DNA from: a virus
Length of the DNA stretch: 22,197 nt
Strand: one strand, 5' to 3'
Virus genome (UHGV): UHGV-0363730
In this document: piece by piece, positions 611-2,584 of the stretch
Position numbering within the stretch: the stretch's first letter is position 1
How the letters are laid out: each line of letters starts with the position of its first letter
Position numbers and translations under genes: made by a program
Notes under the pieces: generated by a model
The model's database searches: none
The model's input: only the letters and a program-made list of their open reading frames with translations
Told to the model about the DNA's origin: nothing

Positions 611-2584
611 ATGGCATTTAAACACTATGACGTGGTCAGGGCATCATCGCCGTCAGACCTCGCAGGAAAACTGACGCAAAAACTGAAGGAAGGCTGGCAA
701 CCCTATGGTAGTCCGATTATCTCAAGCGCGGGTTATGGTGCTGAATTTATCCAGGCTATAGTCGCTGAAGGGGATATGACCTCTCCGGTAGTTTCACCGG
801 GGGGAGATGGTACCCGGACTGTTGTTGTTGAACCAGAATATTACTTTGTCATTGCGCTGGCCGGACAGTCAAACGGCATGGCGTATGGTGAAGGCCTGCC
901 GCTGCCGGAGACATATGACCGTCCGGACCCGCGTATTAAACAGCTGGCGCGTCGCAGTACGGTGACACCGGGTGGTGCGGCCTGTGCATATAACGACATC
1001 ATTCCGGCGGACCACTGCCTGCATGATGTGCAGGATTTGAGCCGTTTTTCTCATCCGAAAGCCAGCGCAGAGCAGTATGGGTGTGTCGGACAGGGATTGC
1101 ATATTGCCAAAAAGCTGTTGCCCTTTATGCCGGAAAATGCGGGTATTTTGTTAGTGCCGTGCTGTCGTGGTGGCTCTGCGTTTACAGCCGGTGCTGACGG
1201 AACGTTCAGTGAAAGTTCAGGAGCGTCGGATAAATCTGAACGATGGGGCGTTGATAAGCCGTTGTATAAAGACCTGCTGACACGCACTCAGGCCGCGCTG
1301 AAGGCAAACCCCAAAAACATACTGCTTTGTGTTGTCTGGATGCAGGGCGAGTTTGATTTAAAACAGGGAGCGTACGCCAGTCAGCCCGCCATGTTTGATG
1401 CCATGGTGGAAAAATACCGTTCTGACCTGGCGGGAGTATCCGGTCAGTGCGCTGGTGCTTCTCCTTCTCTGGTGCCCTGGATTTGTGGTGACACGACGTA
1501 CTACTGGAAGGAGACGTATTCAGCGCAATACGATGCCGTCTATGGCGCATACAAAACCAAAGCCGGTAAAAATATCTTCTTTGTGCCGTTTATGATGGAT
1601 GACAATGGTCAGAAAGTCGGGACCAATGAACCGTCAGAAGACCCGGATATTCCGGCTATCGGGTATTATGGTTCCGGTGGACGAACGGATGCGAAGAGCT
1701 GGACAACATCCGATCGTAAAACCCACTTTGGTTCATGGGCGCGTCGCGGAATTATTTCCGACCGTCTGGCAACAGCCATTCTTCTGCATGTGGGCAGAGT
1801 GGCAGATTTTGTTTCCGGGAAAGTGACAAAAGCCGCGGTTTCTTCAGGCGGAGGCGTATCGCAACCAGCACAGGAGAGTGGCGATACTCAGCCTGAATCC
1901 GTTGTCCCGACAAAGATACAGTCAGTGCTGGCTTATGATGCGAATGCGGAAAATGCCGATCTGGCTTCGCAGGGCTGGACGCTGACAGATGTCAAAAACA
2001 CGCTGGTCAGTGACAGTGGTTCAGGTAAAAAAGCCCTTCGTCTTGAAAAACCAGAAAATGGTCTTGCACAGAAAAAGACCTGGAAAGTATCGCACGCAAT
2101 TGATGCCGGTAAGGGGAAGGAGCTGTTCGATAACGGCGGTGAAATCACGCTGCGCTTTAAAATCCCCGATGATGTATCTCTCAATGCTTCTGCAAATCAA
2201 TATTCTGCGGGTATTTACTGGCGCGGTAGTGGATGGCCGGGAGCGGAATCAGAGGAGGGTTATATTGCGGCCTTCTATCTGCAGACTGATAAAACAAACA
2301 TCAATGTGATGTATCATGCAAACACCACATCACAGCGGCTTGGTAGTTATGGTCCGTTCGATCACGACTGGCACACGCTGACTTTCCGCTTCCCGGGTGG
2401 TGGCTCGCTGAACGTCACGCCGGTGCTTGATAATGCAGCAGGAAAACCGTTTACGCTGACCAGATGGACGAATGCAGCCTTTGAGGCCAACGCGCTGGCA
2501 ATTACGGATATTACCGGAAATGCGGCAACTTACCCTGTGCTGATTGAAAGTCTTACTGTTGGTGTGAATGCCGTAGCAGCATAA
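611..2584 (+). CDS. nanS-p: Prophage sialate O-acetylesterase (NanS-p-like), 657 aa: N-terminal small domain, SGNH/SASA esterase core, C-terminal putative carbohydrate-binding domain
   Basis: Long ATG ORF with RBS GGGAGGA 4 nt upstream; GQSN catalytic-serine motif (IALAGQSNGMAYGEG) typical of SGNH/SASA acetylesterases; position immediately upstream of the lysis cassette, as for nanS-p genes of EHEC lambdoid prophages. Assignment is from recalled family features, not a search. Confidence 0.8.
   Translation: MAFKHYDVVRASSPSDLAGKLTQKLKEGWQPYGSPIISSAGYGAEFIQAIVAEGDMTSPVVSPGGDGTRTVVVEPEYYFVIALAGQSNGMAYGEGLPLPETYDRPDPRIKQLARRSTVTPGGAACAYNDIIPADHCLHDVQDLSRFSHPKASAEQYGCVGQGLHIAKKLLPFMPENAGILLVPCCRGGSAFTAGADGTFSESSGASDKSERWGVDKPLYKDLLTRTQAALKANPKNILLCVVWMQGEFDLKQGAYASQPAMFDAMVEKYRSDLAGVSGQCAGASPSLVPWICGDTTYYWKETYSAQYDAVYGAYKTKAGKNIFFVPFMMDDNGQKVGTNEPSEDPDIPAIGYYGSGGRTDAKSWTTSDRKTHFGSWARRGIISDRLATAILLHVGRVADFVSGKVTKAAVSSGGGVSQPAQESGDTQPESVVPTKIQSVLAYDANAENADLASQGWTLTDVKNTLVSDSGSGKKALRLEKPENGLAQKKTWKVSHAIDAGKGKELFDNGGEITLRFKIPDDVSLNASANQYSAGIYWRGSGWPGAESEEGYIAAFYLQTDKTNINVMYHANTTSQRLGSYGPFDHDWHTLTFRFPGGGSLNVTPVLDNAAGKPFTLTRWTNAAFEANALAITDITGNAATYPVLIESLTVGVNAVAA

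Follow-up and report, generated by a model that had tools for sequence, protein, structure and literature searches.

Prophages of enterohaemorrhagic Escherichia coli (EHEC) carry the gene nanS-p at the head of their lysis region, and a gene found at the corresponding place of the virus genome UHGV-0363730 raises the question of whether it codes for the same kind of enzyme and what it reveals about the phage carrying it. The DNA analyzed is a stretch of 22,197 nucleotides, referred to here as the window, in which the gene occupies positions 611-2584. An initial annotation, made from the sequence alone, had described its product as a 657-aa sialate O-acetylesterase of the NanS-p type, containing a GQSN motif and a C-terminal lectin-like region and lacking Shiga toxin (stx) genes upstream. 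Homology searches and comparisons with related loci bear out this description, and it appears very probable from these comparisons that the open reading frame (ORF), which belongs to the late operon in a lambdoid prophage without Shiga toxin genes, codes for a sialate O-acetylesterase of the NanS-p family. NanS-p as such is already known: the family is characterized, the gene stands in its usual place, carriage by prophages without Shiga toxin (Stx) is documented, and the exact protein is present in RefSeq.

Domain architecture and active site of the esterase

The gene and the domains of its product are as follows.

611..2584, + strand: nanS-p-type gene, coding for a 657-aa DUF1737-SASA/SGNH-DUF6645 protein, ATG start
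617..769, + strand (aa 3-53): DUF1737 N-terminal domain (PF08410), Pfam 62.4 bits; variant called type A below, with an AGYGAEF loop and Tyr42
833..1795, + strand (aa 75-395): SGNH/SASA esterase domain, with Ser87 at nt 869-871, Gln86 just before it and His372 at nt 1724-1726
1919..2569, + strand (aa 437-653): C-terminal lectin-like jelly-roll domain; 6yp6 match, Pfam DUF6645

A GGAGG sequence at 602-606 is located 5 nt before the start codon, and the GQSN motif is found at aa 85-88 (nt 863-874). The whole protein belongs to PHROG 143 (phrog_143, E=4e-299), and Pfam places the SASA domain (PF03629) at aa 83-274 and DUF6645 (PF20350) at aa 508-618 with 94.6 bits. A search against solved structures matched aa 71-391 to PDB entry 3pt5 (E=3e-118), which is NanS/YjhS, the 9-O-acetyl-N-acetylneuraminic acid esterase of E. 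coli, and aa 437-653 to a chain deposited as 'NanS-p', 6yp6 (E=1e-43). The latter represents the lectin-like jelly-roll C-terminal domain of the protein vb_24B_21 of phage Φ24B, for which carbohydrate binding has been proposed in the literature. The presence of DUF1737 beside the catalytic domain is the characteristic architecture of NanS-p (PMC10462455).

The active site of NanS consists of Ser19, His301 and the oxyanion residue Gln18, without a catalytic Asp (PMC9063846), and these residues align with Ser87, His372 and Gln86 of the window protein. The columns of Gln86, Ser87 and His372 are invariant in seven diverse alleles, and that of Asn88 is likewise invariant in comparison with NanS. 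The ORF is intact, and its product is of full length and contains every catalytic residue; as read from the translation, its N-terminus is hydrophilic and carries no signal peptide. All defining features of NanS-p that can be judged from sequence are therefore present, namely the three domains, the catalytic Ser and His together with the oxyanion Gln, and the position in the late region.

Relatedness to known esterases

The same three domains make up the NanS-p of phage 933W (z1466 / L0105, NP_049502) and its twin in Φ24B (vb_24B_21/gp84), which are 645 aa long as compared to 657 aa in the window and share with the window protein the catalytic residues and the AGYGAEF/Tyr42 variant of the N-terminal domain. 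The enzyme of 933W (z1466) has been shown to be an esterase of 9-O-acetylated N-acetylneuraminic acid (Neu5,9Ac2), and the nanS-p alleles studied from prophages of strains EDL933 and O104:H4, some of them on non-Stx prophages, gave active esterases according to a review of the family. The chromosomal NanS (YjhS) contains a homologous type II SGNH esterase domain with the same Ser19/His301 pair and Gln18, but, with 326 aa, consists of this one domain and is encoded in a sialic-acid operon with nanC and nanM (nanCMS), whereas the window protein of 657 aa has three domains and phage neighbors. The two esterase domains are 57.5% identical if the K-12 enzyme is compared.

The allele is far removed from most phage-encoded homologues, since among 351 phage records containing a homologue, 347 show less than 60% identity to the window protein, those of 933W-type Stx2a phages reaching about 58-59% (tblastn). 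The divergence from the 933W/Φ24B enzyme is unevenly distributed, with identities of 77% in the N-terminal domain (aa 1-57), 73% in the esterase domain and 48% in the C-terminal domain, while the linkers are unrelated. It is not a rare allele: the DNA of positions 1-3300 is 100% identical to that of E. coli JNEC-KY173, and the translation is identical to WP_001539105.1, annotated there and in others as a 'SASA family carbohydrate esterase'. The assembly collection lists this exact protein in 476 blocks. The non-Stx phage PhiR12_3 encodes a hypothetical protein, XSB41861, that is 99.4% identical. Of 5426 complete E. coli genomes, 1558 contain related DNA, at a median of two places per genome.

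WP_001538589.1 from strains of the ST1193 type shows the same architecture and locus as the window protein and shares its head and tail module, but the two proteins are only 64% identical. At the DNA level, the window allele and those of the ST1193 type are homologous in the catalytic domain only (833-1790), and because of this confinement the flanking domains appear to have been exchanged as separate modules among nanS-p alleles.

The marked divergence of the C-terminal glycan-binding domain would be compatible with a different ligand, and a review has raised de-O-acetylation of lipopolysaccharide (LPS) by NanS-p as an open possibility. The true substrate might accordingly be sought not in host mucin but in a bacterial surface glycan, for example an O-acetylated O-antigen or an O-acetylated polysialic acid (K1) capsule, the modification of which would aid phage adsorption or escape; the closest relatives indeed come from human extra-intestinal and commensal E. 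coli and not from EHEC. However, the identity of the catalytic domain to the sialate esterase NanS, the conserved active site and the activity of all tested alleles on Neu5,9Ac2 (review) argue against such a substrate, and no evidence linking the window protein to LPS or capsule emerged from this analysis, which makes this alternative very unlikely.

The lysis cassette and the absence of stx

The gene heads a lambdoid lysis cassette, which contains the following features.

2725..2919, + strand: DUF1378 small protein gene (Pfam, 122.6 bits)
about 2945..3235, + strand: DUF826 protein gene; the Pfam match starts at the residue of ATG 2945, the RefSeq start is TTG 2831
3245-3273: intrinsic terminator 3' of the DUF826 gene (terminator scan)
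3312..3527, + strand: class II (P21 S-type) holin (Pfam Phage_holin_2_1, 119.7 bits)
3532..4065, + strand: phage lysozyme (endolysin R; Pfam Phage_lysozyme, 88 bits)
4225..4362, + strand: 45-aa small predicted membrane-protein gene between R and Rz, at the mosaic joint 4222-4351 (blastn breakpoints)
4364..4831, + strand: Rz spanin (Pfam Phage_lysis, 161 bits)
4584-4769, + strand: Rz1 embedded in Rz (Pfam Rz1, 71.6 bits)

The proposed correspondence to the nanS-p position of EHEC prophages is confirmed by synteny with 933W. The order in that phage is Q, pR', tRNA genes, stxA2B2, a spacer of 486 bp, nanS-p, an ORF of the DUF826 region, S, R, ant and Rz; Φ24B shows the same order and, like the window, has an additionally annotated ORF of the DUF1378 type. 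In all three cases the esterase gene is located 3' of a Q-proximal cargo slot and a small RNA (sRNA) of the STnc100 family, and is followed by the DUF826-region ORF and the genes for holin, endolysin and Rz. From about position 155 on and through the start codon, the window can be aligned with the stxB-nanS-p spacer of 933W. Unlike 933W, it carries no stxAB upstream of the gene, and the slot occupied there by the sRNA AsxR is filled by an unrelated sequence.

Searches of the window by tblastn with Stx1A/B and Stx2A/B yielded chance matches only (best E=0.24), and in the six closest relatives searched, the 10-20 kb preceding the esterase gene likewise contained no stx genes. The window contains no tRNA genes detectable by ARAGORN, and PADLOC gave no defense-system match for the esterase.

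Between Rz and the terminase genes, a 126-aa protein encoded at 5088-5468 (+ strand) contains a TonB C-terminal domain (Pfam, 48.7 bits); the product is labeled 'TonB family protein' in relatives and may represent an accessory (moron) gene.

Known and candidate small RNA elements flanking the gene

Positions 1-610 had been described as containing only hairpins and a palindrome, with no stxAB. The absence of stxAB stands, and the ORFs in this region are of 44-49 aa only, but the word 'only' does not hold for the region as a whole, which contains a full-length STnc100 element at 187-403. The elements on both sides of the esterase gene are listed below.

1..150, + strand: 3' flank of the upstream cargo; it contains an intrinsic terminator (stem at 68-83 followed by a T-run; terminator scan)
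187..403, + strand: STnc100-family sRNA, related to PasD (Rfam RF02076), ending in an intrinsic terminator at 372-393 plus U-run
404..490, - strand: candidate sRNA; a hairpin at the 5' end is followed by U-rich single-stranded sequence and by a terminator (from 432 to 411) plus U7
503..524, + strand: terminator-like hairpin about 90 nt before the nanS-p start codon (terminator scan)
2588..2670, - strand: candidate sRNA 3' of the nanS-p stop codon, with the terminator CCGCCAG-N15-CUGGCGG plus U7 from 2625 to 2589

With 150.6 bits (E ~1e-35), the STnc100 match exceeds the Rfam gathering score of 47, and it spans the entire model (positions 1-206 of 206). The hairpins seen at 245-262 and at 372-393 are parts of it. 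STnc100 has been reported to lie downstream of stx2 in Stx2 phages, and in 933W it is located 75 nt 3' of stxB2. Its position with respect to the esterase gene is the same in Stx phages and in the window, but there it follows stxB and here the flank of a probable restriction-modification (RM) cargo. It was present upstream of the esterase gene in 10 of 10 loci examined, whatever the cargo.

The minus-strand element at 404-490 has a predicted fold energy of -28.4 kcal/mol (z = -3.85). Its slot is occupied by AsxR in 933W and in locus L016, and by AgvB in locus L019; its own sequence is a different one, with the closest relative in phage PhiR5_1. Rfam searches of the window detected neither AsxR nor AgvB at E<=1, nor any match at this level for the element itself. 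The columns of the hairpin at 503-524 are invariant among the window, 933W, JNEC-KY173 and PhiR12_3.

A preprint on Pas sRNAs from 2026 relates STnc100 to PasD and describes the arrangement pasD/STnc100, esterase, pasA/pasC and holin. The minus-strand element from 2670 to 2588 may be a candidate member of the PasA/PasC family; a perfect TTGACA hexamer is present on the same strand from 2708 to 2703, and the 140-nt spacer at 2585-2724 is strongly conserved across 933W, VT1-Sakai, locus L014 and PhiR5_1, more so than the adjacent coding sequence.

Positions 1-3400 contain more terminator-like hairpins than shuffled sequences do (12 as compared to 3.3 +/- 1.7), and no convincing sigma-70 promoter for STnc100 or nanS-p was found in 1-610. 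The sole plus-strand promoter match there (8-35) precedes a terminator, and shuffled sequences give no fewer matches. The terminators around the gene are consistent with late, antitermination-dependent expression.

Cargo upstream of nanS-p in related prophages

The spacer bearing STnc100 is the same in JNEC-KY173 and PhiR12_3 as in the window. Their copies of the gene belong to 933W-like podovirus prophages, in which the portal is of the P22 type, the capsid protein is of the N4-gp56 type, and a type IIG RM system is located upstream. The window differs from them 3' of position 4221, where a lambda-like siphovirus module follows. As read in JNEC-KY173, PhiR12_3 and five contigs that encode the identical protein and reach far enough upstream, the common order before the esterase gene is the Q antiterminator, hok/sok, an N6-methylase protein of about 653 aa (up to 725 aa in some gene calls), a specificity subunit, 610 bp and nanS-p. 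Q is found upstream in all relatives with the identical protein whose sequence reaches that far, and the genes for methylase and specificity subunit are still present upstream in three shorter contigs.

The gene for the specificity subunit, the called length of which varies from 186 to 375 aa among the relatives (loci L001, L002 and L006-L013), stops exactly one base before window position 1. PADLOC identifies the methylase protein of the JNEC-KY173 locus (L001, 16861-20000) as a BcgI-like type IIG restriction enzyme-methyltransferase (REase_MTase_IIG, E=3.6e-228) and pairs a type II specificity subunit with it. Because positions 1-4221 of the window are 99.86% identical to these relatives, the same upstream context is the best guess for its source, the cargo slot of which would most likely hold a type IIG RM module.

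Mosaic structure of the window

The window joins two types of prophage. Positions 1-4221 correspond to the 933W-like podovirus-type prophages at the identity given above, positions 4352-22079 to a lambda-like prophage of the ST1193 type (99.74% DNA identity), and the intervening joint of 130 bp (4222-4351) belongs to a common cassette with the gene of the 45-aa protein. The head and tail genes of the window are of the lambda type and comprise Nu1, gpA, a lambda portal, an S49 protease, gpD, gpE, a tail tube and a tape measure protein. As a side observation, the 45-aa gene stands in place of two small ORFs that are found at this point in both parental prophage types.

The whole mosaic was not found in any complete E. 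coli genome (best coverage 89%), nor was the joint with both of its flanks. The exact combination was also not detected among the GTDB representative genomes, where a scan for the joint led to one Escherichia contig at 89% identity. The last 120 nt of the window (22078-22197) are an exact reverse complement of 21569-21688, and relative L014 instead runs on toward gpJ, the tail-tip gene, with its start some 130 nt further along. The inverted end is probably a contig-end artifact, or else a local inversion.

A chimeric mis-assembly was considered as the origin of the mosaic and is largely rejected, since the joint coincides with a complete and very common R-Rz cassette of many prophages; the exact 45-aa protein occurs in 12,215 blocks of the collection, and between lysozyme and Rz in every place shown. 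For the esterase, the related proposal would be a relic gene without activity, left behind in a prophage region that is decaying, mis-assembled or chimeric. The union of two prophage types at a joint absent from complete E. coli genomes and the inverted copy at the end of the window are in line with this proposal, and esterase alleles are sometimes broken elsewhere (for example in loci L017, L018, L020, L026 and L063). On the other hand, the ORF is of full length with complete catalytic residues, the identical protein recurs in the collection, the joint is a natural cassette, and the lysis, head and tail genes flanking the esterase gene are intact, so that a relic seems hardly credible.

N-terminal domain and head type

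A different view of the protein comes from a cryo-electron microscopy (cryo-EM) preprint of 2026 on Φ24B, which describes the NanS-p homologue gp84 as a capsid-decoration protein and one of the most intense bands of the virion. According to this preprint, the DUF1737 domain (residues 2-57, with Tyr42 as a 'tooth') binds as a hexamer to the face-centre hexons of the T=9 capsid, and the enzyme part is cleaved off, SSP-type motifs in the linkers being proposed, and only proposed, as self-cleavage sites. Since the homologue also decorates the capsid, deacetylation of mucin sialic acids may not be the whole function of a protein of the NanS-p type.

The window protein's N-terminal domain keeps Tyr42 (within AGYGAEF) and Gly54 of Φ24B gp84. 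The linkers differ, reading SISSP and PSSPS in 933W/Φ24B and DMTSPVVSP and VSQPAQESGDTQPES in the window protein (alignment). The head genes of the window are of the lambda type, not that of 933W/Φ24B: its capsid protein is of the lambda gpE type (Phage_cap_E, 225 bits) and accompanied by a gpD decoration protein, and shows no significant similarity to the capsid protein of Φ24B (best E=0.047).

The loop of the N-terminal domain and the head module, the latter from the markers terminase large subunit (TerL), portal and major capsid protein (MCP), were classed in 110 loci (L001-L110), of which 56 were assignable to a head type; these loci are not mutually independent. The combinations observed are listed below.

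Type A (AGYGAEF), 933W/Φ24B podovirus head: 18 loci, 8 distinct proteins
Type B (TPYTLMQ), lambda head: 20 loci, 17 distinct proteins
Type B (TPYTLMQ), HK97-like head: 9 loci, 8 distinct proteins
Type C (DDGAALIQ), VT1-Sakai type head: 7 loci, 7 distinct proteins
Type A (AGYGAEF), lambda head (this window): 1 locus, 1 distinct protein
Type A (AGYGAEF), HK97-like head (L077): 1 locus, 1 distinct protein

The variant of the N-terminal domain agrees with the head type in 54 of the 56 loci and for 40 of the 42 distinct proteins, the exceptions being the window and L077. Alleles from lambda-like and HK97-like siphovirus prophages have the type B domain with its TPYTLMQ loop and lack the AGYGAEF/Tyr42 loop, whereas the window combines a podovirus-type N-terminal domain (611-781) with lambda-type head genes (6413-13605). 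The observation of a type A domain beside lambda-type head genes may be new.

The pattern suggests head-specific anchoring, with a mismatch in the window, but linkage of neighboring late genes could produce the same pattern. A broader proposal would be that at least three DUF1737 variants are matched to heads, that NanS-p serves as a head-specific virion decoration in many lambdoid phages, and that the window represents a rare natural mismatch; as judged from these loci, we consider this a tentative idea that is somewhat doubtful as a whole. If it were true, the window esterase would act solely as a free enzyme released at lysis, and the window would offer a ready-made test of the benefit of virion-bound versus soluble NanS-p.

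A further possibility is that the main job of the protein might be structural or centered on the phage, with DUF1737 anchoring it to the capsid, the esterase and lectin domains helping virions to adhere to sialylated mucus or to pass through it, and feeding of the lysogen as a by-product. The abundance of gp84 on virions and its DUF1737 contacts speak for this possibility, together with the retained Tyr42 and Gly54 and the high identity of the N-terminal domain in the window protein and the agreement between domain variant and head type. However, anchoring is doubtful in the present case, where a podovirus-associated domain would meet heads of lambda type with a capsid unlike that of Φ24B, and the SSP-type linker motifs of gp84 do not appear to be conserved (alignment). 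In addition, the association with head type is explicable by gene linkage, and a structural role would be compatible with an enzymatic one. A primarily structural role is thus regarded as rather unlikely.

Proposed function of the esterase

The preferred assignment as a prophage-borne sialate O-acetylesterase has some points to its disadvantage. The Pfam score of the SASA domain is modest (38.3 bits at a cut-off of 24.8), though the match to the NanS structure is very strong, and the overall identity to 933W z1466 / Φ24B gp84 amounts to 59% (tblastn) or 62% (MAFFT). The sequence 5' of position 1 is outside the window, so the dependence of expression on Q is deduced from relatives. Finally, the Φ24B homologue is a virion protein from which the enzyme part is cleaved, and a role in feeding the lysogen may be secondary.

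As a sialate O-acetylesterase, the protein would employ Ser87 as nucleophile and His372 as base, forming a NanS-like Ser-His pair without a catalytic Asp, with Gln86 and a glycine providing the oxyanion hole. It would remove the 9-O-acetyl group from Neu5,9Ac2, the presumed substrate, on mucin glycans, and the resulting Neu5Ac would be releasable by sialidases and catabolized by E. coli. Targeting to glycans is probably the task of the C-terminal jelly-roll domain. Transcription most likely takes place together with that of the late genes and under Q antitermination, and the product is most likely released upon lysis by holin, endolysin and spanins, because several terminators are located 5' of the gene, the lysis genes are encoded just 3' of it, and the protein lacks a signal peptide. 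Expression of other nanS-p alleles was found by quantitative PCR (qPCR) to increase by 1-2.4 logs with mitomycin C (PMC10462455). If the capsid is compatible, some of the protein may also ride on the virion through the DUF1737 domain, which is a capsid anchor in Φ24B.

Implications for NanS-p and its phages

The locus indicates that nanS-p together with STnc100 should not be regarded as a marker of Shiga toxin phages, since the same backbone bears other cargo, which is most likely an RM system in this case. The window allele is far from the enzyme of 933W/Φ24B, and chiefly so in the glycan-binding domain, which makes its substrate range worth testing. The link between the N-terminal domain and head type, to which the window is an exception, is relevant to the recent claim of capsid decoration by NanS-p.

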